Source: an uncultured candidatus Porisulfidus sp.
Lineage (GTDB): Bacteria > Pseudomonadota > Gammaproteobacteria > Poriferisulfidales > Oxydemutatoraceae
DNA: 64,000 bases
Assembly (NCBI GenBank): GCA_965199685.1
Contig: OZ241323.1
Coordinates: 801,940 to 865,939, forward strand
Direction of reading: 5' to 3'
Part shown: piece by piece, positions 4,884 through 56,731 of the stretch
How positions within the stretch are numbered: position 1 is the stretch's first letter
How the letters are laid out: each line of letters starts with the position of its first letter
Translations under genes and position numbers: made by a program
Notes under the pieces: model-generated
What the model was told of the DNA's origin: nothing
Databases searched by the model: none
The model's input: the letters and a program-made list of their open reading frames with translations, nothing else

Positions 4884-4890
4884 GTGCAAA

Positions 4891-5227: not shown

Positions 5228-5239
5228 TGTGTCAGCATA

Positions 5240-5655: not shown

Positions 5656-5697
5656 CGCGTCGTGCGTCGGCAGGGTGCGTTGCGAAGGTATTGTAAA

Positions 5698-8852: not shown

Positions 8853-8862
8853 GAGTTAACTT

Positions 8863-9480: not shown

Positions 9481-9497
9481 AAGTTCCACATTACTAT

Positions 9498-9815
9498 TTG
9501 GGCTTACAGGTGGCTGCACTATCTTGCTTTATTCTGGATAATATGGAAAATATAGAACTTCTAACTAAACACGGAGAAATAACTATGTCGGAATTTGATC
9601 AAGAATTAGATACTTGTGGCTTGAATTGTCCTTTGCCGATATTGCACGCCAAAAAGACTTTGGCGAAGATGGAACAAGGCCAGGTTTTGCATATAATTTC
9701 AACCGACGCAGGTTCGGTTAAAGATTTTGAAGCGTTTTCCAAGCAGACTGGCAACGAATTGCTTGAATCTAAAGAGGAGGGCGGTAAATTTTACTTTTTA
9801 ATGAAAAAAGCATGA
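9498..9815 (+). CDS. TusA-like sulfurtransferase (SirA/TusA family)
   Basis: CPLP motif (LNCPLPILHAKK); the true start is probably an internal Met near 9585. Confidence 0.7.
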   Translation: MGLQVAALSCFILDNMENIELLTKHGEITMSEFDQELDTCGLNCPLPILHAKKTLAKMEQGQVLHIISTDAGSVKDFEAFSKQTGNELLESKEEGGKFYFLMKKA

Positions 9816-9861: not shown

Positions 9862-11393
<1,532 letters not shown>

Positions 11394-11403
11394 CTAAGCT
11401 GTA

Positions 11404-12186
11404 ATGCAACAGGTCAAGGGCAAGGCACTAAAGAAAGGCATTTTCTTATTGCCTAGTTTGATCACCATAGCTTCTTTGTTTAGTGGTGTCTATGCGATGA
11501 TTATGGCATACGCTGGAGACTACGAGCGTGCTGCGATTTTCGGTTTGCTTTGCGTTCTGCTTGATGGCATAGACGGGAACGTTGCCCGGCTGACCCATAC
11601 CGAGAGTCGTTTCGGTGCCGAACTTGATAGTCTGACCGATGTTGTTGTATTCGGATGTATTCCGGCACTGATTATTTATCAATGGTCGTTGGTTCATATT
11701 AGCGAGACTGGTTGGTTGCTCAGTAAACTAGGCTGGTTGGTGGTCTTTTTCTATATTGCCATGACGGTAATGCGATTGGCACGCTTCAACTCACAGCAAG
11801 ATACCTTGAAGAAATATTTTAGAGGCATGCCGTGCCCGGCAGCGGCAACCTTAATAATGAGCTTTATATGGGTATGGGAAGACATCGGTTATAGCGGTGT
11901 TGAAGCAATAGGTTTAAGCTTTGTTATTTTGCTTTTAAGCGGTATCGCAATGATTAGTAACCTCAGCTACTACAGCATTAAACAATTAGAGATAAGCAGG
12001 GTGTCTTTGACCGGTATATTGGCGGCAGTAAGTCTGCTGATCATAGTCTCTTTAGACATTCCCAAAGTTATCCTTTTTATATCGCTACTATATTTATTTT
12101 CGGGACCCTCTTTGTGGTTATCCAGACTACTCAAGAGACGTCTTGCGTATAAGCGCACACTACCATCCACTCGCTTAGGCAAATAA
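11404..12186 (+). CDS. pssA: CDP-diacylglycerol--serine O-phosphatidyltransferase (CDP-alcohol phosphatidyltransferase family)
   Basis: DGxDGxVAR-type motif (LDGIDGNVARL), polytopic. Confidence 0.85.
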   Translation: MQQVKGKALKKGIFLLPSLITIASLFSGVYAMIMAYAGDYERAAIFGLLCVLLDGIDGNVARLTHTESRFGAELDSLTDVVVFGCIPALIIYQWSLVHISETGWLLSKLGWLVVFFYIAMTVMRLARFNSQQDTLKKYFRGMPCPAAATLIMSFIWVWEDIGYSGVEAIGLSFVILLLSGIAMISNLSYYSIKQLEISRVSLTGILAAVSLLIIVSLDIPKVILFISLLYLFSGPSLWLSRLLKRRLAYKRTLPSTRLGK

Positions 12187-12214
12187 TACTGCCGTTTGTA
12201 ACCGTAATGAGAAA

Positions 12215-12604
12215 ATGAAAATCAAAGGATATCACTATACCGAATGTGGATTGAAAAATGTATATATTGAAGGCTTACCTGTCATCAATGACGACGGTAA
12301 AGAGATAATTCAAATTCCAAATATACAGGAATTACACTGGTTGATTGCCAAGGTTATCTTAGAATCCAAATCTATGAACGGAGATGAAATACGATTTCTA
12401 AGGACAGAGATGGGTTACACTCCTGAGGAGTTGTCAGAACAGTTAAATATGGCTTTAAGAACACTGAAGTCTATAGAAAACGGCAAAACCAAAATTAAAG
12501 AAGAGATAGACCTAAAAATACGCCAATTAGGTTTCTCAATGTTAATAATACCTAAACATCATTTATATAACACCAGTTACAAAGAAGAAAACCGAGGCCA
12601 TTGA
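12215..12604 (+). CDS. XRE-family HTH protein with MqsA/YgiT-like N-terminal domain (orphan antitoxin-like)
   Basis: C-terminal HTH GDEIRFLRTEMGYTPEELSEQLNMALRTLKSIENGK; AT-rich; no toxin partner adjacent. Confidence 0.4.
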   Translation: MKIKGYHYTECGLKNVYIEGLPVINDDGKEIIQIPNIQELHWLIAKVILESKSMNGDEIRFLRTEMGYTPEELSEQLNMALRTLKSIENGKTKIKEEIDLKIRQLGFSMLIIPKHHLYNTSYKEENRGH

Positions 12605-12925
12605 AAAAGTATCCTTGAGCCGTAGGGGAGGGCTAACATGAAGCTGTTGAAAAAGTATCGTCATCACTCAAACGTAACCGCTTGCGCCCTCAAATTTATG
12701 ATAACCAACTGTAGGAGTGGACTCGCATGTCCACCCTACGGTACCGTCCTGCACAAACCCAACCGCTATGCGCCACAAGATTATGGTTTGATAAATTTAT
12801 GGATGAATGTATAAATCGTGCAAATACGTCGCGTTAGGGCAGCATAAAGCCGCCGATTGAGCCAGTAGATCAATCGGCATTTCAATTGTCCGCCCCTACA
12901 AGTAGACATACTTTTTCAATGGCTC
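12601..12925. repeat. Composite MITE-like repeat cluster
   Basis: Modules ttgaaaaagtatc, ccgtaggggagggctaacatg, accgcttgcgcc, gccgattgagccagtagatcaatcggc, actttttcaatgg; overlaps the stop codon of the upstream gene. Confidence 0.7.
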
Positions 12926-19443: not shown

Positions 19444-19715
19444 ATAAGGGGCTGTTGAAGAGTAGAACCGCCGTTTGTTGCAGTTGCACAAACGGCGTAA
19501 CATCGTGCAGAACCCTTTGCGCTCGCAAAAACGAAATCGTACATTATTCAATTCATGGAAACCACAACTCAGTGGCGCATAGCGGTTGGAATAGTGCAGA
19601 ACGGTACTTTAGGGAGGGCATGTTAGCCCTCCCCTACAGGTGGTTATCATAAATTCAATGGCGCAAGCGGTTGAGTTTTTACAATGACGATACTTTTTCA
19701 ACAACCCCATAAATG
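19444..19715. repeat. Composite MITE-like repeat with a variant hairpin module (gccgtttgttgca..tgcacaaacggc)
   Basis: Contains tagggagggcatgttagccctcccctac and gatactttttcaacaa modules; ORF 19221..19652 judged spurious. Confidence 0.7.
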
Positions 19716-26689: not shown

Positions 26690-27310
26690 AAGGCTGTTGA
26701 AAAAGTACTGCCATTGTAAAAACTCAACCGCCCCGCGCCATTAAATTTACGATAACCATCCGTAGGGGAGGGCTAACATGGGGCTGTTGAAAAAGTGTCT
26801 GCATTAGTACATTCCCCTCCTTTGGAGGGGTGGCAGGCCTATGCATCTTGTAATGTATGCGTTTAGCAATCATGTTAAGGTTCTGCACAATGTCACGCCG
26901 TTTGTGCAACTGCAACAAACGGCGGTTCTATCTGACGGGGTGGTTGCAAAGGTTCTGAACAATGTTACGCCGATTGACCTACTGGCTCAATCGGCGGTTC
27001 TATTTTTCAACAGTCCCACATGCCCTCCCTAGCGCGTTGCGTCTGTACAAACAATCCATTCATTCATTTCGTTTACGGTAACCATGATTCGGTGGCGCAT
27101 ACGGTTGTATTTGTACAAAGTTTCAATATGTGTAGGGGCAGAATAAAGCCGCCGATTGAGCCAGTAGGTCAATCGGCATTTTAATTGTCCACCCTAACGC
27201 GACGTACTCGCACGATTTATACATTCATCCATCAAATTTATGCAAACCATAATCTTGTGGCGCGTAGCGGTTGGGTTTGTGCAGGACGGTACCGTACCCT
27301 ACACATGCAG
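26690..27310. repeat. Large composite MITE-like repeat cluster (2 or more nested elements, internal duplication of hairpin modules)
   Basis: Modules as at 5461-5629 plus variant gccgtttgtgcaactgcaacaaacggc; ORFs 26841..27032 and 27185..27496 judged spurious. Confidence 0.75.
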
Positions 27311-36677: not shown

Positions 36678-37691
36678 TCAATTATTCGGGCTTTGGTAAA
36701 TGCCTTCAGATGCTTGGCTATTGAGGTGTGCCAATTTTCCAAATGTTTGTTGTGCTTCGCCAGTCTTAGACTCACCCCATAATTTCATCGCTTGCTGTTG
36801 CAGTCCGCGTCCGTAGGAAAAAGTGAGCCGCCACGGCGCACCTTCGCTCGCTGCAAGACGATTGATTGCATCCAAATGAGCAGTTGCTTTTTCATCGCTT
36901 TGTCCGCCGGAAAGAAATGCAATGCCAGGCACTGCTGCCGGCACGGTAGATTTCAAGCAACTGAGGGTATGCTCGGCAACCGTACTCACATCGGCTTGAT
37001 CTGGACAATCGCTACCTGATAAAACCATATTGGGCTTTAATACAATCCCGTTTAGCAGAACGCCTTGAGTACGTAATTCGCAGAACACTTCGTTTTGGGT
37101 GCATTCGCTCACCTCAAAACAATCCTCTATGCTGTGGTGTCCGTCCATCAGCACTTCAGGTTCGACGATAGGCACTATATTTTGTTCTTGACATAATGCC
37201 GCATAACGCGCCAGTGCATGGGCATTTGCATGGATACAAGCCAAAGACGGCATATCGCCACCAATAGTAATGACCGCACGCCACTTTGCAAAGCGCGCGC
37301 CCATCTCGGCGTATTCTTTTAGACGCTCCCGCAACCCGTCCAAGCCCTCGGTAATCTTTTCGCCTTCATAGCCGGCGAGTGCTTTGGCACCTTGGTCTAC
37401 CTTGATACCAGGAATAATGCCTCTAGCTTCTAGATGCTTTGCAAAGGGAACACCATCGTCTGTTTGTTGGCGTATGGTTTCGTCAAAGAGGATCGCAGCG
37501 GAAATATATTGTTCTATGTTGGGTGTGGTAACCAAAACGCTACGATAGCTTTTGCGGTTCTCTTCGGTGGTAGGAATGCCTAGCTTTGCAAAACGTTTAT
37601 CGCAGGTAGGCTTACTTTCGTCCATTGCCAAAATGCCTTTGGCAGGTGCGACCATAGCTTTAGCGGTCGCGTGCAGTGTTTCTGAATTCAT
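36678..37691 (-). CDS. fba: Fructose-bisphosphate aldolase, class I (eukaryotic type)
   Basis: GILAMDES Schiff-base family signature; 337 aa. Confidence 0.85.
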   Translation of the reverse strand: MNSETLHATAKAMVAPAKGILAMDESKPTCDKRFAKLGIPTTEENRKSYRSVLVTTPNIEQYISAAILFDETIRQQTDDGVPFAKHLEARGIIPGIKVDQGAKALAGYEGEKITEGLDGLRERLKEYAEMGARFAKWRAVITIGGDMPSLACIHANAHALARYAALCQEQNIVPIVEPEVLMDGHHSIEDCFEVSECTQNEVFCELRTQGVLLNGIVLKPNMVLSGSDCPDQADVSTVAEHTLSCLKSTVPAAVPGIAFLSGGQSDEKATAHLDAINRLAASEGAPWRLTFSYGRGLQQQAMKLWGESKTGEAQQTFGKLAHLNSQASEGIYQSPNN

Positions 37692-37699: not shown

Positions 37700-37800
37700 A
37701 TTATACGAATTTGACAAAGTTTTTCAATGTTTGTAGAGTCATTGAAAAAGTACCATCATTGAATTTATTCTGCCCCTACAATTCTAATCGGCAGTTCTAT
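37700..37800. repeat. Short MITE-like repeat modules in the pyk-fba intergenic region
   Basis: cattgaaaaagtacc, cattgaatttattctgcccctac, aatcggcag. Confidence 0.55.
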
Positions 37801-39241
37801 TGACATGAATGATTTTCATTGCGTTGGTGCCGCCGTGTTGCCCTTTCTTATCGCCTTTGGTGATAATGACGACCGAGTCTTTATCAAAGCGATGATACGG
37901 TTTTAAGGCATTGATAACTTCTTGATTAATGTTGCCAGAATGATCGCCTTGCAATAGCACTGGATAGACACCGCGATAGAGTGTCACCTTGCGACAGGTT
38001 TCTACATGGTGGGTGAGGGCATAAATTGGTATCGCAGAGACGAGGCGAGAAAGCCATTGGGTGGTAGAACCCGACTCGGTCATCGCTGCAATCGCCGAGA
38101 CATTGAGGTGGTTTGCGGTATAGATTGCCGAAAGCGCAATGGCTTGATCAAATTGATGTATTTGTTGATCCAGTAAATAATCGTTGCTGTGTTGCGTGAT
38201 ATCGCCTTGCTCGGCACCTTGACAGATACGGCTCATCGTTTTCACGACCAGTGCTGGGTGTTTGCCAATTGCTGACTCGGCAGACAACATGAGTGCGTCG
38301 GAACCATCCAAGACGGCATTTGCGACATCCGATATTTCTGCTCGGGTGGGAACGCTACTCTCAATCATTGATTGCAACATCTCAGTTGCAGTGATGACGA
38401 TGCAATTGTGCGCGCGTGCCTTAACAATCAGTTGTTTTTGCACTGCGGTCAAAGCTGCGTCTCCGATTTCGATGCTGAGATCGCCTCTAGCGATCATCAC
38501 ACCGTCTACAACTTGAAGTATATCGTCGATACAATCGAGTGCCTCGCTGCGTTCTATTTTAGCAATTAGTGCGGCATTCCCGCCTGCTTGCTGTAGTAGA
38601 TTTCTTGCGTAAAGCATATCTTCGGGACTCTTAGGGAAGGAAACTGCTAAGTAATCTACTCCCATCTTCGTTGCAAGTTTAATATCTTGTTTGTCTTTGT
38701 CGGTGATGGTTTGTGCCGACAAACCGCCGCCGCGACGATTGACACCTTTATTATTGGATAACACACCACCAATATTAACCGTCGTTATCACTTTCTGATC
38801 TTTTATTTGTTCTACTTCCAAAGTGATGCGTCCGTCGTCAAGTAGCAGTTCGTCTCCTTTTTTGACATCTTTATGGAGGTCTGCATAACTGATACCTACT
38901 TGATGTTCATTGCCAGCATTTTGTTCCAGCTCGGCATCCAAAATGAAACGTTGTCCAGTTTTGAGTTCTATTTGGTCGTTGACAAAACGTTGTATCCTTA
39001 TTTTAGGGCCTTGCAAATCACCAAGTATGCCAACATGGTATTTTTTTTGTGCCGATACCTTGCGCACTAGCTCCGCCCGTCGAAGTTGCTCTTCAGCATC
39101 ACCGTGCGAGAAGTTCATTCTGACCACGTCCACACCGGCATCTATCAGTTCTTTTATGGTTTGCTCGTCGTCGGTAGCAGGCCCTAAGGTTGTAATGATT
39201 TTAGTGGTTCTAGATTTTTTGGCAGTATTGATTTCGGTCAT
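37784..39241 (-). CDS. pyk: Pyruvate kinase
   Basis: 485 aa; MNFSHGD, conserved PK barrel. Confidence 0.9.
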   Translation of the reverse strand: MTEINTAKKSRTTKIITTLGPATDDEQTIKELIDAGVDVVRMNFSHGDAEEQLRRAELVRKVSAQKKYHVGILGDLQGPKIRIQRFVNDQIELKTGQRFILDAELEQNAGNEHQVGISYADLHKDVKKGDELLLDDGRITLEVEQIKDQKVITTVNIGGVLSNNKGVNRRGGGLSAQTITDKDKQDIKLATKMGVDYLAVSFPKSPEDMLYARNLLQQAGGNAALIAKIERSEALDCIDDILQVVDGVMIARGDLSIEIGDAALTAVQKQLIVKARAHNCIVITATEMLQSMIESSVPTRAEISDVANAVLDGSDALMLSAESAIGKHPALVVKTMSRICQGAEQGDITQHSNDYLLDQQIHQFDQAIALSAIYTANHLNVSAIAAMTESGSTTQWLSRLVSAIPIYALTHHVETCRKVTLYRGVYPVLLQGDHSGNINQEVINALKPYHRFDKDSVVIITKGDKKGQHGGTNAMKIIHVNRTAD

Positions 39242-39243
39242 CG

Positions 39244-40479
39244 TTAATGCTCCAAGTCCATACTTTGATCGTTTGCTGCCTTGTGGTTCAGCATGGTCAA
39301 CGCAGGCAGTTCTTGTCCTGAGGCAAGCTGTAGAAAAGCACCACCTCCGGTAGAGATATACATATTATCTCTTTGCAAGTCAAACTTTTTTATTGCCGCA
39401 AGCGTATCTCCGCCACCGGCGACGATATGCGCAGAACTCTGTTTAATCGCTTGCACGATTGCCTGGGTGCCGTCGGCAAAAGGTTCACATTCAAAGGCAC
39501 CAAGCGGTCCGTTCCACAGTACGCAGTCGGCCTCGGCTATTGCGTTGCTGTAGGCGACCTGTGTTTTCGTGCCTATGTCTAGTATCATTTCGTCTGCTTG
39601 TACATTATCTAGGGTTTTGCATACGGCATCGCTACTTTCGGATAATTCTGTTGCGCATATCACATCGGACGGCAACAACAGCTGTTTGTGTTGTTCTCTC
39701 ATTTTATATTGCAACTCAGCACCGAAGGAGACGAGGTCTTTTTCGTACAACGAGCTTCCTATATCGTAGCCGTTTCCAGCAATAAAGGTATTTGCGATAC
39801 CGCCGCCTATAATCAAGGTGTCTACATGTTCCGATAAAGCCGATAGCAGTTCTAGTTTGCCCGATACTTTAGAACCACCGACAATGGCGACGCGGTGCAT
39901 ATAACGCGGTAGATCATCGCTACCAATATCTCCTGAGGCATTTCCCAATGCATTACGAATCTCGTGGATTTCTTGTGCGAATAACGAACCCGCGCAAGCG
40001 GTTCTTGCATACTTCATGGCTTTGTGTGTGGAGGCGTGGGCGCGGTGTGCGCATCCGAAGGCATTCATCACATAGATATCGCAAAGATCTGCCAAGTGGC
40101 TCGCCAGTGTATCGTCGTCTTCAAGCTCACCGGATTGAAAACGGATATTTTCATACATTACAAGTTCGCCGGGCTGCACGGCAATATCGCTCGAATAATC
40201 GGAGATTAAGGGTATGGTTTTACCGAGTAATTCGGATAAGTGCGATGCCACCGGCTGCAACGAGAATGCTTGGTTATTATTGCCGGCTTTGGGACGTCCT
40301 AAGTGCGAGATTAGCGATAATGCGGCACCCGCATCTAATGCAGTTTTTATATCGGGTAGGCAGGCATGAATTCTTTGATCGTCGCTCACCGCACCGTCGT
40401 TGATGGGAACATTCATATCAACGCGCATCATCACTCGCTTGTTTGCGAGTGCGACTTGATCAATGTGTAAGAATTCCAT
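39244..40479 (-). CDS. pgk: Phosphoglycerate kinase
   Basis: PGK N- and C-domains (RVDMNVP, GGGA). Confidence 0.95.
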   Translation of the reverse strand: MEFLHIDQVALANKRVMMRVDMNVPINDGAVSDDQRIHACLPDIKTALDAGAALSLISHLGRPKAGNNNQAFSLQPVASHLSELLGKTIPLISDYSSDIAVQPGELVMYENIRFQSGELEDDDTLASHLADLCDIYVMNAFGCAHRAHASTHKAMKYARTACAGSLFAQEIHEIRNALGNASGDIGSDDLPRYMHRVAIVGGSKVSGKLELLSALSEHVDTLIIGGGIANTFIAGNGYDIGSSLYEKDLVSFGAELQYKMREQHKQLLLPSDVICATELSESSDAVCKTLDNVQADEMILDIGTKTQVAYSNAIAEADCVLWNGPLGAFECEPFADGTQAIVQAIKQSSAHIVAGGGDTLAAIKKFDLQRDNMYISTGGGAFLQLASGQELPALTMLNHKAANDQSMDLEH

Positions 40480-40508
40480 ATAAACCTATAAGTGGATCAT
40501 TGTTTGGC

Positions 40509-41522
40509 TTATTTTGCGCGCATCAATGCTTCGGACATATCGATCATTCGACACGCATAAGCCCATTCGTTATCGTACCATGCCGACACCTTGACTAGGG
40601 TATCTTGCATCACTTGGGTTAGGGTTGAGTCGTAGACTGCCGATGCCGGATTATGATTGAAGTCGCAAGACACTAGAGGATCATCGTTGTATGCGATAAT
40701 GCCTTGCATCGAACTTTGTGACGCTGCCAGCACAGCATCGTTCACCGATTGCTTGTTGGTAGCACGAGAGGCAGTAAAAGTGAAGTCAACCAAAGATACG
40801 TTTATGGTCGGAATACGCAACGCATAACCGTGTAATTTTCCAGCCAATTCCGGTAGCACCAACCCGACTGCCTTGGCGGCACCAGTTTTGGTGGGAACGA
40901 TAGAGGTTGTCGCAGAGCGTGCTCGCCTCAGCTCTTTGTGTGGCGAATCAATCAACACTTGATCGTTGGTATAGGCGTGTATCGTGGTTAGCAAACCATG
41001 TTCCACGCCGATTGCCTCGGACAGTACTTTGACAACCGGAGCTAAGCAATTGGTGGTGCACGAAGCATTAGAGACGATTTGGTCATCGGCTTTTAACAGC
41101 TCTTCGTTGACACCGTAGACCACGGTTGCATCGACATCGGCTTGTCCGGGTGCCGATATCAATACTTTGCGCGCACCGCCGTCTAGATGTGCTTGCGCAA
41201 GGGCTTTGCTTTTGAACTTGCCAGTACATTCGCAGACTACGTCTACACCGACTTCGTGCCACGGGAGCTTGGCTGGATCGCGCTCCGAATAGACTCTAAT
41301 CAAGTCTCCGTTGATACTCAGATGTTTGTCATCGGCGATCTGCACATCGGCATTGAAATGGCCGTGTGTCGTGTCGTGTCGTGTCAGATACAATACGGTT
41401 TCTAGATCAGTGCTTGCATTGATTGCAGCTAAGCGAATAGTATCGGTGCGCCGATATTCGTATAAAGCTCGCAAGATGCAGCGTCCTATGCGCCCGTATC
41501 CACTAATAGCAATATTAATCAT
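40509..41522 (-). CDS. gap: Glyceraldehyde-3-phosphate dehydrogenase (GapB/Epd-like)
   Basis: NGFGRIGR-type N-terminus (SGYGRIGR), SCTTNCLAP active site, [11 protein letters not shown]-terminus. Confidence 0.85.
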
Positions 41523-42036
41523 TTATACTCCTATGATGTTGCTTGATTAAAGATTGTGCTGTTGACAAAGTATTTCATGCACTCGTAGGGGAGGGCTAAC
41601 ATGCCCTCCCTAAAGTATTGTACTTGTATCATCTCAACCGCCATGCGCCTCCAATATCCACTAATAGCAATATTAATCATTTATGCTCCTATGATGTTGT
41701 TTGATTAAAGATTGTGCTGCTGACAAAGTATTTCATGCACCCGTAGGGGAGGGCTAACATGCCCTCCCTAAAGTATTGTACTTGTACCATCTCAACCGCC
41801 ATGCGCCTCCAATATCCACTAATAGTAATATTAATCATTTATGCTCCTATGATGTTGTTTGATTAAAGATTGTGCTGTTGACAAAGTATTTCATGCACCC
41901 GTAGGGGAGGGCTAACATGCCCTCCCTAAAGTATTGTACTTGTACCATCTCAACCGCCATGCGCCTCCAATATCCACTAATAGCAATATTAATCATTTAT
42001 GCTCCTATGATGTTGTTTGATTAAAGATTGTGCTGT
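41500..42036. repeat. Tandem repeat: 3 full copies plus 1 partial of a 158-bp unit (41500-41657, 41658-41815, 41816-41973, 41974-42036)
   Basis: Each unit carries the gap RBS, ATG and first 8 codons, plus a perfect hairpin GTAGGGGAGGGC-TAACAT-GCCCTCCCCTAC (some copies have one mismatch); the partial copy encodes the last 14 codons and the stop of tkt. Confidence 0.9.
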
Positions 42037-44001
42037 TGCGTAGATATTTTCTACGCTGAAGCCAAAGTGTTCAAATAAATCTTTGCCCGGTGCCGATGCA
42101 CCAAAGGTGTCTATGCCGATTATCGCGCCATCTGTGCCTATATATCGATACCACCAATCGCTCTTGCCAGCCTCTATCACCAATTTCGGAACCGCCGGCA
42201 GTAACACCGTTTCTCTATAACTTTGTGGTTGTCGATCAAAGGCTTCGGCACAAGGCATCGACACTAGATTGACTTGGTGATTTTCCTCATCCAGCCGATC
42301 GCAAAGCTGTGATGCCAATTCCACTTCGGAGCCTGTTGCGATAATAATCAGTGAAGGGTGCGAAGTCTCTTGCAATAGATAAGCACCTTTTTGTATGAGT
42401 TGTAATTGCTCATCTAGTCTATCGCAATGCGCTAAGGTTTGTCGAGATAAAACCAATGCACTTGGGTGGTCTTCGGCTTCTATTGCAGCTTTCCATGCGA
42501 CTGCAGTTTCTACGCAGTCGCAAGGTCTCCACACATCCAAGCCAGGCATCAGGCGTAGACTACTCAGATGTTCTATCGGTTGGTGTGTAGGACCATCTTC
42601 GCCCAGACCGATGGAGTCGTGAGTATAGATAAAGACGACTTTTTTCCCCATCATTGCCGAAAGGCGCAGCGCGTTGCGAGCGTAGTCTGAGAATACCAAA
42701 AAAGTAGCCACAAACGGAATGAAGCCGCCGTGCAGTGTGATACCGTTGGCAATCGCCGACATCGCAAACTCACGCACCCCAAAATAGATATAGTTGCCGT
42801 CGTGTTGCTCGGCATCTATGGCTCGGCTACCTTCCCATAGTGTTCCGTTTGAACCTGCCAAATCGGCAGAGCCACCAATTAACTCCGGCAAACAGTCGCT
42901 AAACGATGCTAATGTTTGGCACGAGGCTTGGCGAGTTGCGAGTGCCTTTTTTTGTTTGTGGTTTTGTGCAATCCATTGCGTTGCATGGTTTTGCCAATCG
43001 CTCGGCAGTTGTCCGCTAATACGACGATTGAATTCTCTTGCCAGTTCAGGATATTCCGATTGATACGCGTCTAATTTTTTCTGCCAGTTTGATTGATGTA
43101 TGCGACCTTTCTCTTTGGCATCCCATGCTGAGTATATCTCTTCCGGTATCTCAAAAGATGGGTGATGCCAATCTAATGTTGCTCGAGCTTGTACGATTGC
43201 ATCGTCGCCCAACGGTGCGCCATGAACAGATTCACTGCCTTGCTGCGGTGAACCATAACCAATAATCGTTCTGCAGCATAGCAGGCTGGGTGCCGGATTT
43301 GCACGCGCCGCTTCAATTGCCTTGCTGATGTCGGCGGGGTTGTGTCCGTCTATTTCGGAAATCACATGCCAGCCGTATGCTTCAAAACGTCCATGTGTAT
43401 AATCGCTGAACCATTTTTGCACTTGTCCGTCTATAGAGATGCCGTTGTCGTCGTAAAAGACGATGAGTTTGGCAAGTTTCAGAGTCCCCGCCAGTGAACA
43501 TGCTTCGTGGGAGATTCCTTCCATCAGACAACCGTCGCCGGCAAATACATAGCTGTAGTGATCAACGATATCGAGATCATCACGGTTAAAATGTTGCGCC
43601 ATAGTACGCTCTGCAATCGCCATCCCGACTGCGTTTGCTAACCCTTGTCCAAGCGGTCCAGTGGTAGCTTCTATGCCTACGGTAATACCGAACTCAGGAT
43701 GTCCGGGCGTTATTGAACCTAATTGTCTAAAGCTTGCAATATCCTCTATGCCAAGGGGATAGCCACTTAGATGCAACAGTGCATAATGCAACATGCAACC
43801 ATGACCGTTTGAGAGAATAAAGCGATCTCTATCAAACCAAGTGCTATCGTTGGGGTTGTGTTTGAGATAATCATTCCACAGTACCTCGGCGATATCCGCC
43901 ATGCCCATAGGCATACCGGGGTGTCCAGAGCGAGCTTTTTGTACGGCATCCATGCTCAAAGCTCTAATCGCATTGGCGAGCTGTTGACGGGGTGGCATCA
44001 C
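41989..44001 (-). CDS. tkt: Transketolase
   Basis: 670 aa; TPP-binding and pyrimidine-binding domains. Confidence 0.95.
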
Positions 44002-44238
44002 AAAGAGAATGTCAAATTTGTATTTTGTAAATCAAGATCCATTTTCTGGCATAGTATACTACATAAATATATCTAGTAGCACGTGACGTTATGTAGAACT
44101 GACATACCTCCAATTTACGTAAACCGCCTGCAGGGATGGTTATCGTGCGATTTCGTTTCTTTTTGTTTAGCATGTTATACTTTCTAAAATCGCATTGTTT
44201 ATGATGCACTAAATAATAGTGAACAATACGGAGGAGTA

Positions 44239-44646
44239 ATGACAACCGAAAATGATATAGTTAAAAGATATTTTGACGCTTGGGATCAGCGTAATGTAGA
44301 TGACATTTTAGCAACCTTTGCCGAAGGCGGTACTTATTGCGATCCAGCGACTGAGAAAGTGATAACCGGACAGGAAATCGGAAAATATGCACAATCTTTG
44401 TTTGATGCCTTTCCCGATATGTCGGTAGAGTTGATTAGCAGCGTTGAGGCGAGCAATAGTGTGATTGCAGCACCGTGGCTAATATTTGGCACCAACGACG
44501 GTCCTATAATAGGTAATCCACCTACCGGCAAGAGTGTGGTAATTCAAGGTTGCGATTTTATAAAAACCAAGGATGGTCTGCTAACCACCGTAGTCGGTGT
44601 TTGGGATGTCAAAGACCTTTCGGCACAGCTGGGTTTATCCAGCTGA
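44239..44646 (+). CDS. SnoaL-like / NTF2-like domain protein (ester cyclase family)
   Basis: VKRYFDAWDQRNVDDILATFAEGGTYCDP pattern. Confidence 0.55.
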   Translation: MTTENDIVKRYFDAWDQRNVDDILATFAEGGTYCDPATEKVITGQEIGKYAQSLFDAFPDMSVELISSVEASNSVIAAPWLIFGTNDGPIIGNPPTGKSVVIQGCDFIKTKDGLLTTVVGVWDVKDLSAQLGLSS

Positions 44647-44785
44647 GAACCGCCGATTGAGCTAGTAGCTCAATCGGCGTGACTTTGTGCAGAACCACCA
44701 CAACCACCCCGTCAGGCTTCGCCTGCCACCCCTCCATAGGAGGGGAATGTACTAATGACGATACTTTTTCAACATTCCCACATGT
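44647..44785. repeat. MITE-like repeat (hairpin modules gccgattgagctagtagctcaatcggc and cccctccataggagggg)
   Basis: Sits between the convergent snoaL-like gene and xseA. Confidence 0.7.
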
Positions 44786-44788
44786 AGT

Positions 44789-46141
44789 TTATGTTGTGGT
44801 TTTGTGGTTATCCACTTCGGCTTCTATTTTGCCGTCGCTGACTTGGATGTTGATTTTTTGCTTTATACTCACTTGCTTGATTGAGCGCACCAAATGGTCG
44901 GATTTGTCGGTGACGATTGCGTAGCCTCTTTTTAAGGTGGTAGTCGGTCCTAATGTTTCGAGTTTACTTGCCGAGTGTGCAACACTTTGTTTGGCATACT
45001 GAAGTTTGTCTCGTAGATTATCTTGCAATGCTTTGGCGTGCAAAGCGAGCTTGTTGCTGTATATTTCCATATATTTGATCGGAGTATTGCTTAACAGCAG
45101 GTTACGTTGATGTTCAAGTTGCTGACCACTTATGTATAAATAATTTTTTATCATTGGTGTCAAACGGCGGCTCAGTTCGTCCAGTTGTTGGGCGTAGTTT
45201 TGTAGTTGATGTTTGGGGTGAGACTTGGCAAGTTTGGCTTCCATCAGTTTGATCAATTCTGATTTCTGTCTGAATGTACGTTTTATTTCTGTATATAAAT
45301 TTTTGTTTATAACATTCAATTCTTGCATAAGTTCGTTTTGATCAGGACTGATATACTCAGCTGCTGCCGACGGTGTCGGCGCACGACGGTCGCATACGAA
45401 ATCGGCTATCGTAAAATCTATTTCGTGTCCGATGCCGGTGACGATGGGTATCTGGCATCCGACGATAGTACGCGCAACTACCTCGTCGTTGAATGCCCAT
45501 AAATCTTCTATGGAACCGCCACCGCGTACCAGCAATAAAACCTCAACTTCGCGTCTATGTTCGGCAATCTCTAATGCTTGGCAGATTTCTTCAGGTGCTT
45601 TGTCGCCCTGCACGAGTGTCGGGTAGACGATTAGATGCACGATAGGAAAACGTTTGCGTAATACTGAGATGACATCTCTTAAGGCAGCACCTTTTTCCGA
45701 AGTAACCACTCCGACGCTGCGCGGGTATTCTGGTATTTCTTTTTTTAGAGCTTCGTCAAACAACCCCTCTTTATAGAGTTTTTGTTTTAGGCGTTCAAAC
45801 TCTAATTGCAGTTTGCCACTACCTGCGGCTTCCACGCGTTTCACGATGAGCTGTAGTTCGCCGCGCTTTTCATACAATTCTATGCGTGCCTGTAGCTGTA
45901 CCGACAAACCATTTTCAAGCTCAAACTTCAGCTCTCGGTTGTCGCCACGGAACATCGCACAACGAATCTGACTGTCGTTGTCTTTGATGCTGAAATAAAA
46001 ATGTCCCGAAGCGGCACACATGAAATTGGATATTTCTCCTTCCACCCATACCAGCGCAAAATTGTATAGCAAGGTTTCTCTGATTTCCTTGTTCAGTTTG
46101 CTTACCGTATAAATATTTTTTTCTTCAATTGAAAACTGCAT
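44789..46141 (-). CDS. xseA: Exodeoxyribonuclease VII large subunit
   Basis: 450 aa; OB-fold N-terminus, conserved catalytic core. Confidence 0.9.
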   Translation of the reverse strand: MQFSIEEKNIYTVSKLNKEIRETLLYNFALVWVEGEISNFMCAASGHFYFSIKDNDSQIRCAMFRGDNRELKFELENGLSVQLQARIELYEKRGELQLIVKRVEAAGSGKLQLEFERLKQKLYKEGLFDEALKKEIPEYPRSVGVVTSEKGAALRDVISVLRKRFPIVHLIVYPTLVQGDKAPEEICQALEIAEHRREVEVLLLVRGGGSIEDLWAFNDEVVARTIVGCQIPIVTGIGHEIDFTIADFVCDRRAPTPSAAAEYISPDQNELMQELNVINKNLYTEIKRTFRQKSELIKLMEAKLAKSHPKHQLQNYAQQLDELSRRLTPMIKNYLYISGQQLEHQRNLLLSNTPIKYMEIYSNKLALHAKALQDNLRDKLQYAKQSVAHSASKLETLGPTTTLKRGYAIVTDKSDHLVRSIKQVSIKQKINIQVSDGKIEAEVDNHKTTT

Positions 46142-46207
46142 GATAACTATTTTGTGTGTGTGTTTATGCTACACTAGCCGTTTAGTATATACGAGTCTGA
46201 GGTTTAT

Positions 46208-47668
46208 ATGGAAATGGAACAAATAAAGCAAGCGTTGACCTTTGATGATGTATTGTTGGTTCCCGCTTATTCAAAGGTCTTGCCTGCGGAGGTGGACTTG
46301 ACGGCAAGATTGAGCCGTGCAATTTCTTTGAACATTCCCCTGGTGTCTGCGGCAATGGATACCGTGACCGAATCCGATATTGCGATTTCACTTGCCCAAC
46401 TCGGTGGTATAGGTTTTATACACAAAAATATGCCTATAGATATGCAAGCTGACCAAGTACGCATGGTCAAGAAGTTTGAAAGCGGTGTTATCAAAGACCC
46501 GATCACGGTGTCTCCCGATACTTCAATCAAAACGGTTATAGATTTAACACGAAATTATAGAATCTCGGGAGTGCCGGTGGTAAAGGGTAAACAACTGGTA
46601 GGTATCGTAACACACCGCGACCTGCGCTTCGAAACTCGTCGCGATAACAGTATCTCCGAAATAATGACACCTAAGGAGAGGCTGGTGACCGTCAAGGAAA
46701 ATACCGATGCCGAAGAAGTCAGACGGCGGTTGCATGAGCATAAGATCGAAAAGATCTTGGTGGTCAACGACGATTTCGAATTATGCGGACTGATAACCGT
46801 TAAGGATATGCAAAAGGCGGAACAGTTTCCCAATGCGTCCAAAGATGCCGAAGGACAATTACAAGTCGGTGCGTCTATAGGCACTGGTAATTTGGCATTG
46901 GAGCGAGCAACTGCGATTGCAGAGGCAGGGTGTGATGTTATGTTGGTAGATACCGCCCACGGTCATTCACAACGGGTACTTGATACGGTTGCCGAGATAA
47001 AAAAATCTTTCTCCGACAAGCAACTCATCGCTGGTAATGTTGCAACTGCCGAAGCGGCGCAAGCGTTGCTCGCTAAAGATGTCGATGCAATCAAGATTGG
47101 CGTAGGGCCGGGATCTATATGCACCACACGAGTTGTTGCAGGGATAGGAATGCCGCAATTCAGCGCGATTTATGAGGTAGCACAAGCGGTAAAAGATGAG
47201 GTACCACTGATTGCCGACGGCGGGATACGATTTTCCGGGGATTTGAGTAAGGCGATCGCAGCAGGTGCCGACACGGTGATGATCGGTAGCCTTTTTGCTG
47301 GCACCCGAGAAGCACCCGGTGAGATAGAACTCTATCAAGGGCGTTCGTACAAGGTCTATCGCGGTATGGGTTCTTTGGCTGCGATGCAACAAGGCGCAAG
47401 GGATCGATATGCACAATATGATGTAGAAGACGAGAAACTAGTGCCTGAGGGCATAGAGGGACGAGTACCTTATCGCGGTGGGTTGGCCCAGGTCGTTTAT
47501 CAGCTACTTGGTGGATTGCGTTCGGGTATGGGTTATATAGGATGCAATACGATAGCCGAAGTGCATAAGAAAGCAAAGTTCACCAGAATTACCGAAGCTG
47601 GGATGCGAGAGAGCCATGTCCACGATGTTAGTATTACCAAAGAGGCACCTAATTACCATGTTGAATAA
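46208..47668 (+). CDS. guaB: IMP dehydrogenase
   Basis: CBS pair, catalytic Cys loop [11 protein letters not shown]. Confidence 0.95.
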
Positions 47669-47685
47669 GCCGCTCTACAAAATGT

Positions 47686-49293
47686 ATGGCTAAGGCTACG
47701 CAATCTAAGAACTGCTATAGACTACACGATTTTCTATACGATCACGCCGGCTGCGATAAAATTGCAATCATTGATTTTGGCTCCCAATACACACGGCTCA
47801 TTGCCCGGAAAATTAGAGAACTAGGTGTTTATAGCGAAATATTTCCAGCACATACAACGACTGCGAAGCTGAGCGATTTCGCACCGCGAGCAATTATTTT
47901 ATCTGGAGGTCCTGAATCGGTACATTCTGATTCGGCACCTGATGTTGGTTTTGATATACATGTCTTGGGATTGCCGGTTTTGGGGATATGTTACGGCATG
48001 CAATGGCTTGCTGTGGAATGCGATGGGGAGATAGAAAGTTCTGACGACCGAGAATTTGGTTCTGCAGAGATTACGATCAAAGACTCCTCTCCACTGTTCA
48101 GCGGGATGCAAGTATCTGCTAATTCAACACATTCGGTATGGATGTCGCATGGGGATAGAGTCATCGGACTGCCTGATAGTTTTGTAGCCATTGCAGCGAG
48201 CGAACATTCTCCGATTGCTGCAATGGCAAATGAGGCGCGGGCATGGTATGGTCTGCAATTTCATCCTGAAGTAACACACACTACCGATGGCAAAGCGATA
48301 TTAGAGAACTTTGTATATAATATTGCCGATTGTAAATCGAGTTGGCAAGCTGCCGATATTGCCGATAAAAGTATAGAGTATATCCGTAGCATTGTTGGCG
48401 ATGAACAGGTTTTATTGGCACTGTCTGGCGGCGTAGATTCTGCGGTCGCCGCACTCTTGTTACAGCGTGCAATAGCTGACAAACTACACTGTATTTTCGT
48501 TGATAACGGTTTGCTAAGGCAAGGGGAACGCGCACAAGTCGTGGAGACTTTTGAAAAGCATTTCGGCATAGATCTGCATGTAGTAGACGCAAGAGATAAT
48601 TTTCTAAATGCACTCAAGGGAATAACCGACCCCGAACAAAAAAGACAAATTATCGGTAAACTATTTATAGAAACTTTTGAACGTCGCGCGCAAGCAATAG
48701 GTAAGGTGGATTGGCTTGCACAAGGCACGATTTACCCCGATATTATAGAATCGGCAGGCGCGGAAGGATCGCATTTGATCAAATCTCATCATAATGTCGG
48801 TGGGTTGCCTGAGCGGATGAAGCTGAAAATCCTGGAGCCATTGGCTTATCTATTCAAAGACGAAGTGCGAGCTTTGGGTAGAGTGCTTGGTTTGGACGAG
48901 ACGATAGTGCGGCGACATCCGTTTCCGGGTCCTGGGCTTGCGGTGCGTGTATTGAGTGCTGTAGATGAGGAGTCTTTGCATATATTACGACAAGCCGATG
49001 CCATATTCATTAAAGCATTATGGGATAGCGATTTATACGATAAGGTTGCCCAGGCGTTTGCGGTTATTCTTCCAGTCAAATCAGTTGGTGTGATGGGAGA
49101 CGGTAGGCAGTACGGCAGGGTGGTTGTGCTGCGAGCAGTGGGAAGTGAAGATTTTATGACTGCGAACAGTGCGCATTTGCCAGCATCTTTTTTATCCGAA
49201 GTCGCTTCGCGCATCGTCAACGAAGTATCGGGTGTTACACGCGTCTGCTACGACCTGAGTAGCAAACCCCCAGCAACTATTGAGTGGGAATAA
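47686..49293 (+). CDS. guaA: GMP synthase (glutamine-hydrolysing)
   Basis: GATase domain plus ATP-PPase SGGVDS motif. Confidence 0.95.
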   Translation: MAKATQSKNCYRLHDFLYDHAGCDKIAIIDFGSQYTRLIARKIRELGVYSEIFPAHTTTAKLSDFAPRAIILSGGPESVHSDSAPDVGFDIHVLGLPVLGICYGMQWLAVECDGEIESSDDREFGSAEITIKDSSPLFSGMQVSANSTHSVWMSHGDRVIGLPDSFVAIAASEHSPIAAMANEARAWYGLQFHPEVTHTTDGKAILENFVYNIADCKSSWQAADIADKSIEYIRSIVGDEQVLLALSGGVDSAVAALLLQRAIADKLHCIFVDNGLLRQGERAQVVETFEKHFGIDLHVVDARDNFLNALKGITDPEQKRQIIGKLFIETFERRAQAIGKVDWLAQGTIYPDIIESAGAEGSHLIKSHHNVGGLPERMKLKILEPLAYLFKDEVRALGRVLGLDETIVRRHPFPGPGLAVRVLSAVDEESLHILRQADAIFIKALWDSDLYDKVAQAFAVILPVKSVGVMGDGRQYGRVVVLRAVGSEDFMTANSAHLPASFLSEVASRIVNEVSGVTRVCYDLSSKPPATIEWE

Positions 49294-49605
49294 ACCACTA
49301 ATCGAGAAGTAGGACTGTTGAAAAAGTATCTGCATTAGTACATTCCCCTCCTGTGGAGGGGTGGCAGGCGAAGCCTGACGGGGTGGTTGTTAAGGTTCTG
49401 AACAATGTTACGCCGATTGACCTACTGGATCAATCGGCAGTTCTATTTTTCAACAGTCCCATGTTAGCCCTCCCCTACGGTGCATGAAATACTTTTTAAC
49501 AATCCCATACACGATATTTCTAATGACCACAGTATTAGATTTCGCATAAAGTTACGCCGATTGACCTACTGGATCAATCGGCAGTTCTATCTTGATTAAA
49601 CTAGA
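49294..49605. repeat. MITE-like repeat cluster; 49315-49482 is an about 170-bp element near-identical to 5461-5629, followed by a partial second hairpin module
   Basis: Direct comparison of the two copies gives about 94% identity. Confidence 0.8.
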
Positions 49606-52350: not shown

Positions 52351-53394
52351 ATGTTGGAACTACAAAACCTAAGCGTTGCGATTGATAAACAAACCATCGT
52401 TAAAAATGCCTCTTTGAATATTAAAACCGGCAAAATAGGGTGTTTGTTGGGACCTAGCGGTAGCGGTAAAAGCACTTTGCTTAGATGTGTCGCAGGCTTT
52501 CATCGTGCGTTGTCGGGTTCTGTTTATTTAGAGAATAATCTGATAGAAAGTCCGCAAAAACGGGTTGCCGTGGAAGCTCGGCGTATTGGCGTTATGTTTC
52601 AAGACTATGCATTGTTTCCACATCTAACTGTTGAGGAGAATATTGGCTTTGGTATTCATTCTATGGGACGACGCGAGTATCAAGTGCGCCTCAAGCGCAT
52701 GCTCAAACTAACTGAGCTTAGTGTTTATTCGGACTGCTATCCCAACGAATTGTCGGGTGGACAGCAACAACGCGTGGCATTGGCACGAGCACTTGCACCA
52801 CTACCTAAACTCCTATTATTGGATGAGCCTTTTTCTAATGTAGACAGCCAACTCAAGCTACAGATGGTACAAGAAATGAGAGAACTATTGATTGACATGA
52901 ACATTACCACTCTGATGGTAAGCCACGACCAAAGCGAGTCGCTGGCAATGTCAGATAGTTTGGGTTTGATGCTAGAAGGGCAGATATTGCAATGGAGCAA
53001 CACTTATGATTTTTATCATCGCCCGGTATCTCGCCAAGTTGCAACCTTCATAGGAATGGGTACTATGCTGCGCGGCACGCTCACCGAAAATAAAACCATC
53101 AAAACCGCACTGGGTGAATTGCTTCCTACACCGGACACCGTGCTTCCGCAAAGCAAAGAAGTTGATGTGCTAATTCGTCCCGACGATATAATCCACGATG
53201 ACGACAGCGACTTTCAAGCAACGATAAAGAAAAAAGAATTTAGGGGCGCACAGTTTCTTTATTTATTGCATCTAAAAAACGGTGATTATGTTCAGTGTTT
53301 TGCTCCCAGCCATCACGATCATAGCATTGATGAACAAATCGGCATTCGTGTAGATATGGAACATGTAGTATGCTTCCCAGCCGATCAATCGTAG
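52351..53394 (+). CDS. fbpC: Fe(3+) ABC transporter ATP-binding protein
   Basis: Walker A GPSGSGKST, signature LSGGQQQR; start at MLELQNL. Confidence 0.85.
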   Translation: MLELQNLSVAIDKQTIVKNASLNIKTGKIGCLLGPSGSGKSTLLRCVAGFHRALSGSVYLENNLIESPQKRVAVEARRIGVMFQDYALFPHLTVEENIGFGIHSMGRREYQVRLKRMLKLTELSVYSDCYPNELSGGQQQRVALARALAPLPKLLLLDEPFSNVDSQLKLQMVQEMRELLIDMNITTLMVSHDQSESLAMSDSLGLMLEGQILQWSNTYDFYHRPVSRQVATFIGMGTMLRGTLTENKTIKTALGELLPTPDTVLPQSKEVDVLIRPDDIIHDDDSDFQATIKKKEFRGAQFLYLLHLKNGDYVQCFAPSHHDHSIDEQIGIRVDMEHVVCFPADQS

Positions 53395-53397
53395 TGG

Positions 53398-53450
53398 TTG
53401 TGCCCATGCAATGGCATTACTTTTTCAACAGTCCCAAGCGTGATCCGTTA
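53398..53450. repeat. Truncated MITE end module (actttttcaacagtccc)
   Basis: Matches the terminal module of the repeat family. Confidence 0.5.
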
Positions 53451-55667: not shown

Positions 55668-55945
55668 GGGCTGTTGAAAAAGTGGTATTCCCCTCCAAAG
55701 GAGGGGAACGTACTAATGCAGATACTTTTTCAACAGTCCCATATTGTGTTCGTTAGAAACAGTAAGTATACCAGAATCAATCGGAGTGACACTGTGCAGA
55801 ACCTCAACAACCACTTCGTCAGATAGAACTGCCGATTGAGCCGGTAAGTCAATCGGCGTGACACTGTGCAGAGCTTCAACATGATTGCTAAACACATGTA
55901 TTACAAAATGCATAGGCCTGCCACCCCTCCAGAGGAAGGGAATTA
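55668..55945. repeat. Composite MITE-like repeat cluster
   Basis: Modules gggctgttgaaaaagt, cccctccaaaggagggg, gccgattgagccggtaagtcaatcggc, gcataggcctgccacccctcc; overlaps the fabI stop codon. Confidence 0.75.
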
Positions 55946-56731
55946 GTCAGTGGTTTTATACATGCCCAGCAAATGATAACCCGAATCTACATGTATGATT
56001 TCGCCGGTAATTGCTCGTGCTAGATCGGAACATAAAAAAGCACCTACATTTCCGACTTCTTCTATAGTAACATTTCTGCCTAGCGGAGCATTTTTTTCTA
56101 CATGATTCAGCATCTCGCGAAAACCAGATATGCCCGATGCTGCCAAAGTTTTTATAGGTCCTGCCGAGATTGCATTGACGCGTATTCCGTCGCTACCGAG
56201 TCCTGCTGCCAAATAACGTACCGCAGCTTCCAAACTGGCTTTCGCCAACCCCATCACATTGTAGTTCGGTACGACTTTTTCTGCTCCTAGATAACTTAAG
56301 GTTAACATTGCCGCTTCGCCGCCTTGCATCATCGTTCTTGCACGTTGTGCAAGTGCAACCAAGCTGTAGCAACTGGCTTCGTGTGCAGTGTTAAAGCCTT
56401 GTCTGGTACTTTGCTCTATGAATTCGCCTGCCAACTCCTCACGCGGAGCATAGGCGATGGAATGTACTAATATATCCAAACGCTGCCATTTTTGCTTTAG
56501 GTGTTTGAATAATGCATCTATTTCATCATCGTTTTGAGCATCGCACGGCAGTATCATATCGGCGTTGCACGCCTCGCCAAGTTTTTCTACTCTGCTTTTC
56601 AATTTTTCGTTTTGATAGCTCAGCGCAATATGTGCGCCTTCGCGCGCCAGACTTTGGGTAATACCCCAAGCGATAGAGTGTTTAGTTGCAACTCCTGTTA
56701 CCAAAGCATATTTATTTGCTAAGATACCCAC
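55943..56731 (-). CDS. fabI: Enoyl-[acyl-carrier-protein] reductase (NADH)
   Basis: SDR fold, Y-x6-K; GTG start. Confidence 0.9.
   Translation of the reverse strand: MGILANKYALVTGVATKHSIAWGITQSLAREGAHIALSYQNEKLKSRVEKLGEACNADMILPCDAQNDDEIDALFKHLKQKWQRLDILVHSIAYAPREELAGEFIEQSTRQGFNTAHEASCYSLVALAQRARTMMQGGEAAMLTLSYLGAEKVVPNYNVMGLAKASLEAAVRYLAAGLGSDGIRVNAISAGPIKTLAASGISGFREMLNHVEKNAPLGRNVTIEEVGNVGAFLCSDLARAITGEIIHVDSGYHLLGMYKTTD

Follow-up and report, generated by a model that had tools for sequence, protein, structure and literature searches.

In a 64,000-nucleotide stretch of contig OZ241323.1 from an uncultured Candidatus Porisulfidus sp. (hereafter the window), the genes for transketolase (tkt) and type I glyceraldehyde-3-phosphate dehydrogenase (GAPDH; gap) are separated by a tandem array of 158-bp units. 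Each unit joins a copy of the native tkt/gap junction to a piece of an interspersed repeat family. The array recurs in close strains with other numbers or orders of units and is missing from sister lineages. On balance, we think it probable that this is a lineage-specific chimeric minisatellite, in which a captured repeat fragment entered along with a duplication of the junction, unequal recombination changed the number of units, and short open reading frames (ORFs) relay translation on to gap.

Structure of the tkt-gap array

Tandem Repeats Finder (TRF) identified one tandem array at positions 41497-42038, with a period of 158, 3.4 copies, 97% matches, no indels, and a score of 1042; it is the sole sizeable tandem array in the window. 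This agrees with the first-pass annotation, an earlier reading of the letters, which had placed 3.4 copies of a 158-bp unit at the tkt-gap junction. Alignment of the units with each other and with gap divided the unit into 68 bp of native tkt-3'/gap-5' junction and 90 bp of repeat-family sequence, the latter having first been put at 95 bp. Duplicated host sequence makes up 43% of the unit. The 68-bp part (CAACAGCACAATC...AGGAGCATAAATGATTAATATTGCTATTAGTGGATA) holds the 3' end of tkt, the Shine-Dalgarno (SD) sequence AGGAG, the octamer ATGATTAA, and gap codons 1-9, and the 90-bp part (TTGGAGGCGCATGGCGGTTGAG...TTTAGGGAGGGCATGTTAGCCCTCCCCTACGGGTGCATGAAATACTTTGT) is modular interspersed repeat sequence. 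The octamer occurs at 41996, 41838, 41680, and 41522, each time preceded by TAGGAG-N5, so every unit does rebuild the ribosome-binding site (RBS) and ATG of gap, as first noted. The units of the window differ at six positions, all of them transitions.

Three of the four starts open 49-codon ORFs beginning MINIAISGY or MINITISGY, referred to here as decoy ORFs, and only the fourth enters gap. Translation therefore upholds the earlier description of decoys of roughly 49 codons, with the last unit alone reading into the real gene (GYGRIGR). Each decoy ORF terminates at the TAG of TAGGAG, 8 nt ahead of the next ATG. The resulting spacings are -8 for decoy ORF 1 relative to the tkt stop and +8 from each decoy stop to the next ATG, that of gap included. 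The array and its two flanking genes comprise the following features, in the direction of transcription.

41989..44001, minus: tkt, transketolase (ORF; Pfam Transketolase_N/pyr/C, E=6e-152)
41497..42038, minus: tandem array, 158-bp unit x 3.4 (TRF and unit alignment)
41971..42038, minus: native junction copy 1, 68 bp, state A23/C38 (collinear with the single junction of relatives)
41847..41996, minus: decoy ORF 1, 49 codons, ATG overlapping the tkt stop by 8 nt (same as P0125)
41881..41970, minus: insert 1, 90 bp, left-truncated family fragment TTGGAG-GCGCATGGCGGTTG ... hairpin ... ATACTTTGT (blastn and module listing)
41813..41880, minus: native junction copy 2, 68 bp, with G55A (decoy A5T) (unit alignment)
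41689..41838, minus: decoy ORF 2, 49 codons, A5T and N40S (same as P0121)
41723..41812, minus: insert 2, 90 bp, identical to insert 1 (unit alignment and blastn)
41655..41722, minus: native junction copy 3, 68 bp, with A3G (unit alignment)
41531..41680, minus: decoy ORF 3, 49 codons, V18I, G33E, and T47A, its stop 8 nt before the true gap ATG (same as P0123)
41565..41654, minus: insert 3, 90 bp, carrying G94A and G140A, as does scaffold L090 (unit alignment)
41497..41564, minus: native junction copy 4, 68 bp, G23/T38, running into the real gap and identical to the last copy in contig L089
40509..41522, minus: gap, type I GAPDH, the real gene, beginning GYGRIGR after the duplicated start (ORF and Pfam)

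Both tkt and gap are intact despite the array, which is in this respect a fairly ordinary structural variant. The last 15 sense codons of tkt and its stop lie inside repeat unit 1 (the first count was 14 codons), and the tkt C-terminus matches the junction in relatives. ORF translation also bears out that the tkt TAA is embedded in ATGATTAA, the gap start. The gap start now lies 466 nt past the last base of the tkt stop, compared with a native 8-nt overlap. The repeat sequence departs from the native one immediately after GGATA (gap codon 9), not at ggcgcat, where the divergence had been placed. The motif GCGCAT is common to native gap and the array, 3-6 nt past the divergence point. Its position in the array unit is shifted by 3 nt from that in the native gene, and it is therefore not the crossover point; a crossover at GGCGCATAG was rejected for this reason.

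The array is absent from sister lineages

We compared the junction in five sister-lineage loci, L081-L085, with Gap identities of 93%, 93%, 87%, 86%, and 84%, respectively; L081 and L082 are ~86-87% identical to the window at the nucleotide level. The junction is uninterrupted in all five, with a single ATGATTAA at which tkt and gap share 8 nt and with no repeat, and the array is therefore derived. In L086 (Gap 75%), the tkt and gap gene calls likewise overlap with no insert. Orthologous sites are thus empty in related lineages, and the array, which sits between co-oriented operon genes, is not a conserved regulatory device; a regulatory role conserved among them is made less likely by its absence. 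Among named relatives, the nearest is a "Chromatiales bacterium" metagenome-assembled genome with 75% Gap identity, the host being an uncultured gammaproteobacterium. When Gap was compared with species-representative genomes, the best of the matches listed were 63-64% identical, with no close relative among them, and a junction-specific 22-mer was absent from JGI metagenomes.

At the native junction (window 41989-42024), we also observed a possible A/U-rich stem of 7 bp, UUAAUCA ... UGAUUAA, around the gap SD. This stem would pair most of the gap AUG and the tkt stop, and it is predicted in every array unit. The pairing bases are kept in L081 and L082, and the motif is changed (to TTAATAA or TTAATAG) in L083-L085.

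Copy number and unit order differ between close strains

A protein search with decoy ORF 1 returned one cluster of five 49-residue sequences. Three of the five are the window's own ORFs, all on one 2,878,237-bp contig (NCBI, ENA), which also carries the exact window Gap sequence in the protein collection. The fourth lies on L089, a 51-kb long-read metagenome contig with 93-96% nucleotide identity to the window. Here the order is tkt, one decoy ORF, and gap, and the junctions are identical to those of the window. The single L089 insert is identical to window inserts 1 and 2 (G94/G140); the first junction copy has A23/C38 and the last G23/T38, as in the window. Because these states are shared, both differences predate the change in copy number. 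The fifth sequence lies on L090, a 1,968-bp short-read scaffold with 98% nucleotide identity, in which the insert-3 variant (A94/A140) directly follows tkt and the scaffold ends inside the array.

With one insert in L089, three in the window, and another unit order in L090, the array is indeed like a variable-number tandem repeat (VNTR), as the first-pass annotation had it. Judged from the three alleles seen, all from assemblies, both copy number and unit order differ between close strains. Head-to-tail 158-bp units with a strain-variable copy number at one locus place it among the minisatellites or VNTRs. For a 2.49-Mb contig with a 97% identical Gap (P0133), no decoy ORF is on record in the protein collection, which hints at an empty allele and presence/absence variation.

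Between L089 and window positions 37786-47812, divergence is mosaic, ranging from 0-2 to 12-18 differences per 100 nt, a pattern that points to homologous recombination being frequent in the species cluster. One low-divergence tract of ~0.6-0.7 kb is centered on the array, around which the two sequences show 1 difference in 226 nt. The array-bearing L089 and the array-free L082 (~87% nucleotide identity) come from the same ENA sample, ERZ25067984.

The insert is a truncated member of an interspersed repeat family

Many intergenic regions of the window are filled by a modular, mosaic, palindrome-rich interspersed repeat family that is non-coding and hairpin-forming. Its modules include the inverted termini CTGTTGAAAAAGTA / TACTTTTTCAACAG, the module GGCGCAnnGCGGTTG, a GCCGATTGA...TCAATCGGC hairpin, a CCCCTCC-N4-GGAGGGG hairpin, and GTAGGGGAGGGC as a hairpin or half-hairpin. 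The modules are often nested or chained, each re-creating the TACTTTTTCAACAG end; this terminus or its complement occurs ~20 times in the window and the GGCGCAnnGCGGTTG module ~10 times. Clusters of the family lie at the following positions.

~200-450, 5250-5660, 12600-12920, 19570-19710, 26690-27300, 37700-37780: repeat-family clusters
44630-44790, 49310-49600, 53390-53440, 55680-55950: repeat-family clusters, continued

Both blastn and shared modules confirm the earlier assignment of the insert to this family. Against the window, blastn gave partial matches to family copies at 19605, 49460, 5607, 12620, and 26760. The GGCGCAnnGCGGTTG module and hairpin are common to the insert and the copies at 19574, 12620, 26760, 49460, and 5607, the hairpin or half-hairpin module lying at 19608, 12620, 26760, 49460, and 5607. 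The complete 158-bp unit is found nowhere else in the window; only its 90-bp part is family sequence. Other family copies run at least 40 conserved nt further to the left of the GGCGCA module, from which it follows that the array insert is left-truncated and keeps only the right-hand terminus. Accordingly, the family terminus ATACTTTGTCAACAG is present on one side only, and the other side begins inside a module. A pattern search with the family core 19-mer returned only two chance matches, in unrelated high-GC contigs.

The family is also present in L081, the closest sister lineage, where the spacer between the phosphoglycerate kinase (pgk) and pyruvate kinase (pyk) genes holds a 174-bp x 2.0 tandem array of the same family (L081 8394-8744, 97% matches). 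Tandem amplification of family sequence has therefore occurred in this operon at least twice independently. Between pyk and the aldolase gene fba, L081 further carries a 429-residue ORF (10959-12248) with HTH_23/HTH_29 matches, resembling a transposase N-terminus. It lies beside a family terminus (10654-10667) and may be an autonomous partner of the family. In the window itself, a perfect 17-bp x 2 tandem duplication (ATTGTACAGAGCCATAA) was observed at 344-377 within a repeat-family cluster. Another cluster (5254-5660) directly follows the RNase P RNA gene (4889-5228, minus, 324 bits), which is 8 nt from a tRNA gene (4810-4881, plus).

Each insert adds an imperfect hairpin

As first described, three decoy starts and three extra hairpins have been added between tkt and gap. 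The hairpin itself differs from that description, which had GTAGGGGAGGGC-TAACAT-GCCCTCCCCTAC as a perfect 12-bp hairpin in some copies. None of the three inserts contains it (0/3): all read GTAGGGGAGGGCTAACATGCCCTCCCTAAA, three mismatches away, in three identical array copies, and this sequence occurs once more at 19608. The real structure is a perfect 8-bp stem, GGGAGGGC/GCCCTCCC, which is extended only via a bulge and gives an imperfect hairpin in every copy.

41905..41926 (insert 1), 41747-41768, and 41589-41610, no strand assigned: hairpin core GGGAGGGC-N6-GCCCTCCC, 8 bp (sequence match and folds)

A 101-nt insert folds into an extended imperfect hairpin (-31.8 kcal/mol, z=-1.9), and the fold of the whole array is only modestly better than that of shuffled sequences (z=-2.1). 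The hairpin is followed by ACGGGUGCAUGAAA, with no U-run. No terminator-like sites were found on 40400-44300, against a mean of 3.3 in shuffles, and no sigma-70-like -35/-10 elements were found within 41497-42038 by a scan that covers no other promoter types. As neither was found, a terminator or promoter within the array was rejected.

A proposed origin by fragment capture and junction duplication

The first-pass annotation had the element recombine into gap codons 8-11 and then amplify. In outline this stands, as the sister junctions are uninterrupted and the breakpoints resemble the family; the ggcgcat breakpoint does not. In the mechanism that we propose, a 90-bp left-truncated family fragment would have been joined to gap after codon 9, inside a repeat module, and the canonical terminus of the family would have been joined to CAACAG in tkt, which lies 68 bp upstream from the first breakpoint. 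The 68-bp tkt-stop/gap-start junction would thereby have been duplicated on both sides of the fragment, leaving both genes whole. Because tkt and gap overlap, the junction offers no neutral place for an insertion, and a simple insertion would cut the tkt C-terminus or the gap start; exit downstream and re-entry upstream necessarily duplicate the sequence between. The source event would be a replication template switch or a microhomology-guided capture of the fragment rather than transposition, given that one family end is missing, that the flanking repeat is 68 bp long, and that no other copy has a duplicated flank. Within the window, duplicated native coding sequence around a family insert is found only at the array. 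Unequal recombination between the 68-bp direct repeats would then give 1, 2, 3, or more inserts.

Both breakpoints show some resemblance to the family. CAACAG(C) is common to the native tkt 3' end and the family terminus, and ~15/22 surrounding positions match (read by eye). Native gap GGGCGCATAGG resembles family GGCGCATAGCGG, a similarity shifted by 3 nt in the array. A general mechanism is known in which microhomology-mediated tandem duplication with templated insertion precedes RecA-dependent unequal crossing-over. The array is like such duplications in its short shared bounds, in the ectopic "filler" DNA at a novel joint, and in the later change of copy number. It differs in that it is very small (68 bp), in that the filler is a repeat-family fragment resembling both breakpoints, and in that it was fixed in a lineage in nature and not under laboratory selection.

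A possible translational relay through the decoy ORFs

A plausible role for the decoy ORFs is to pass ribosomes from tkt along to gap, by analogy with what has been proposed for the MIRUs (mycobacterial interspersed repetitive units). Ribosomes finishing tkt would start decoy ORF 1 and then pass ORF by ORF to gap. Under such a relay, ribosomes would translate through the 466-nt spacer and hold its hairpins open, and this would account for the insertion being tolerated in an essential operon. In the insert, the ATG frame is the only open one, and any frame that enters the next junction copy stops at +24, +8, or -8 nt from the next ATG. In its passages on gene spacing, PMC12548453 lists -8 among the enriched native spacings and reports coupling at small positive spacings, with steep losses by +5 to +13 nt in some studies. 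The passages on MIRUs in that source and in PMC3184786 name them as elements with an internal ORF to which the downstream gene is coupled.

The decoy ORFs had no Pfam match, their homologues are only array copies in close strains, and all five substitutions within them (5/5) are nonsynonymous. We therefore rejected a functional small protein; by these sequence criteria, the decoy peptides are without function and not under selection.

A number of points weigh against the capture-and-relay reading. The relay, although the most economical reading, is drawn purely from sequence geometry and not from expression, and every gap-type SD and ATG could, as far as its sequence goes, initiate alone, making a relay unnecessary. 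The frame through the insert is also open in 8.7% of shuffles, which is not significant, and the open frame is for this reason weak evidence of selection. Nor can the low divergence of the array be taken as a sign of selection, an interpretation that we rejected because divergence here is mosaic and other low-divergence tracts lie nearby. As for the origin, blastn found no copy in the window identical to the 90-bp insert, the best matches being partial, and with no identical donor there the template switch is a model and not an observation. Microhomology at the left junction is at most ~3 nt, the GCGCAT similarity being 3 nt out of register. Finally, copy number may have changed from 1 to 3 or from 3 to 1, as both directions fit.

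The tkt-gap-pgk-pyk-fba operon

The genes tkt, gap, pgk, pyk, and fba all lie on the minus strand, and the same gene order is found in relatives. Pfam confirms the operon as it was first annotated and shows the aldolase to be of class I. The earlier label "Calvin-type" is not supported: pyruvate kinase and a class I aldolase are present, and no gene marks the operon as such, RuBisCO and phosphoribulokinase having been neither searched for nor seen.

39244-40479, minus: pgk, phosphoglycerate kinase (Pfam)
37784-39241, minus: pyk, pyruvate kinase (Pfam)
36678-37691, minus: fba, class I fructose-bisphosphate aldolase (Pfam)

In L089, the pyruvate kinase call (8438-9679) has 413 residues, compared with 485 in the window, and a weak PK_C match. 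On this contig of 4x coverage, the gene could be frameshifted or truncated, or the assembly could be in error.

Alternative explanations

A reading that we hold to be unlikely, while taking it seriously, is that the array is a neutral passenger, a tolerated structural mutation in which gap is translated from its own strong SD, the decoys are by-products, and unequal recombination lets copy number drift. Sister lineages with the same operon lack the array, the decoy peptides evolve freely, and open frames arise in shuffles at the frequency given above, all of which fits such a passenger. So do the 174-bp x 2 family array that the same operon tolerates between pgk and pyk in L081 and the lack of a recorded decoy ORF on the 2.49-Mb contig, with the presence/absence variation that this suggests. 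Difficult to square with it are the native -8 overlap, from whose conservation at five loci in sister lineages (Gap 84-93%) it follows that coupling is important there, and the persistence of the insertion across lineages differing by 2-7% in flanking DNA. Moreover, 466 nt of structured spacer before four essential glycolytic genes would be expected to be costly if untranslated. We regard it as distinctly improbable that the array is a copy-number-tunable regulator, whose units would attenuate or buffer gap-pgk-pyk-fba relative to tkt via imperfect re-initiation and/or hairpins acting as exonuclease barriers or processing sites. Variation in unit number may, on this account, provide heritable and reversible population settings. 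Repetitive extragenic palindromic (REP) elements in the E. coli mal operon work in this way, blocking 3'-exonucleases or serving as processing sites. In favor of such a regulator, close strains do differ in copy number, and every unit brings with it a full-strength initiation site and a stable, if imperfect, hairpin (-31.8 kcal/mol per 101 nt); the units are also modular, any copy number leaving both genes intact. Against this stand the lack of terminator- or promoter-like sites in the array, a whole-array fold only modestly better than shuffles, and the lack of conservation beyond the species-level cluster; moreover, only three alleles have been seen. The earlier suggestion that the array tunes polarity or translation of the downstream glycolytic genes is a conjecture. 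We would put at similarly long odds its stronger form, a "gear-box" for central carbon metabolism in which each unit would pass on a fraction of the tkt-terminating ribosomes and add an RNA hairpin. If this were true, gain or loss of units would set the Tkt:Gap-Pgk-Pyk-Fba ratio, strains with 1 and 3 units would differ, and a duplicated gene start and a repeat fragment would have given a gammaproteobacterium its own, independent MIRU-like translational relay.

Very little credence attaches to an ordinary transposition into the junction by a MITE (miniature inverted-repeat transposable element), followed by amplification, with the 68-bp repeat as an overlong target-site duplication or a secondary duplication. 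The family does have inverted termini (CTGTTGAAAAAGTA ... TACTTTTTCAACAG) and many dispersed copies, and the right end of the insert is the canonical family terminus, abutting native CAACAG as a possible preferred target. The insert, truncated on its left side, has a single family terminus, and the direct repeat that flanks it is 68 bp of native sequence rather than a short (2-15 bp) target-site duplication; we know of no transposase that makes target duplications anywhere near this length. In addition, native sequence is not duplicated around any other family copy in the window. Classical transposition fails on its two defining features, a full pair of termini and a short target-site duplication. 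An assembly artifact, with the array or its copy number arising from repeat mis-assembly, is scarcely credible, and this concern of the first-pass annotation is largely answered by two independent assemblies. The count of three is as assembled, and the short-read scaffold L090 breaks inside the array. Nevertheless, the insertion itself is real: two independent assemblies, made from other samples, contain this insert with these junctions and make an artifact unlikely, and both window insert variants are independently confirmed (G94/G140 in L089, A94/A140 in L090). The differences between units are six transitions without indels, and the three decoy ORFs lie on one 2.88-Mb contig (NCBI, ENA).

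Relation to known systems and meaning

The array is no new type of system, and its closest known counterpart, functionally and topologically, is the MIRU-VNTR (Supply et al. 1997, as presented in the MIRU passages of PMC12548453 and PMC3184786). As described there, MIRUs are short tandem units between genes of polycistronic operons and are co-transcribed, a small ORF in each unit keeps the upstream stop and downstream start coupled, copy number is strain-variable, and orthologous sites in related species are empty. The array shares this layout, the coupling here being predicted from its geometry. There is no sequence relationship, and the phylum is another one. According to the same passages, the MIRU element supplies the ORF, at a spacing of -4; in the array, duplicated host sequence (SD, ATG, and nine codons) accounts for 68 of 158 bp, with spacings of -8 and +8. 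What the repeat family contributed to the array is a truncated fragment and not a whole dispersed element. For want of a sequence relationship, and with 43% host sequence and a fragmentary repeat part, the array is not a member of the MIRU family.

Likenesses also exist to MITE/REP-type repeats fused to host ORFs, such as Rickettsia RPE, Neisseria Correia, and pneumococcal BOX/RUP elements. In the sections of PMC3184786 that treat them, these are likewise dispersed, hairpin-forming, modular, and non-coding, with inverted termini, and an ORF that begins in the host DNA runs on through the repeat. In contrast, the array leaves the host genes unaltered, its fusion ORFs being decoys from a duplicated gene start, and its insert is without one family end and without a short target-site duplication. 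Neisseria REP2, a repeat with an RBS and ATG, is related in kind. As portrayed in PMC3184786, REP2 is dispersed genome-wide with its own promoter, RBS, and ATG, whereas the RBS and ATG of the array come from a local duplication at one locus only.

The array is a clean natural example of an interspersed repeat entering a gene junction without intergenic space (8-nt overlap), damage to tkt and gap having been avoided by duplicating the junction along with the insert. It acts as a VNTR inside an essential glycolytic operon and provides a ready-made strain-typing marker for this uncultured lineage. Alleles with 0, 1, and 3 units also form a natural series in which the reach of translational coupling through short ORFs could be tested, and the array is a convergent parallel to the mycobacterial MIRUs.

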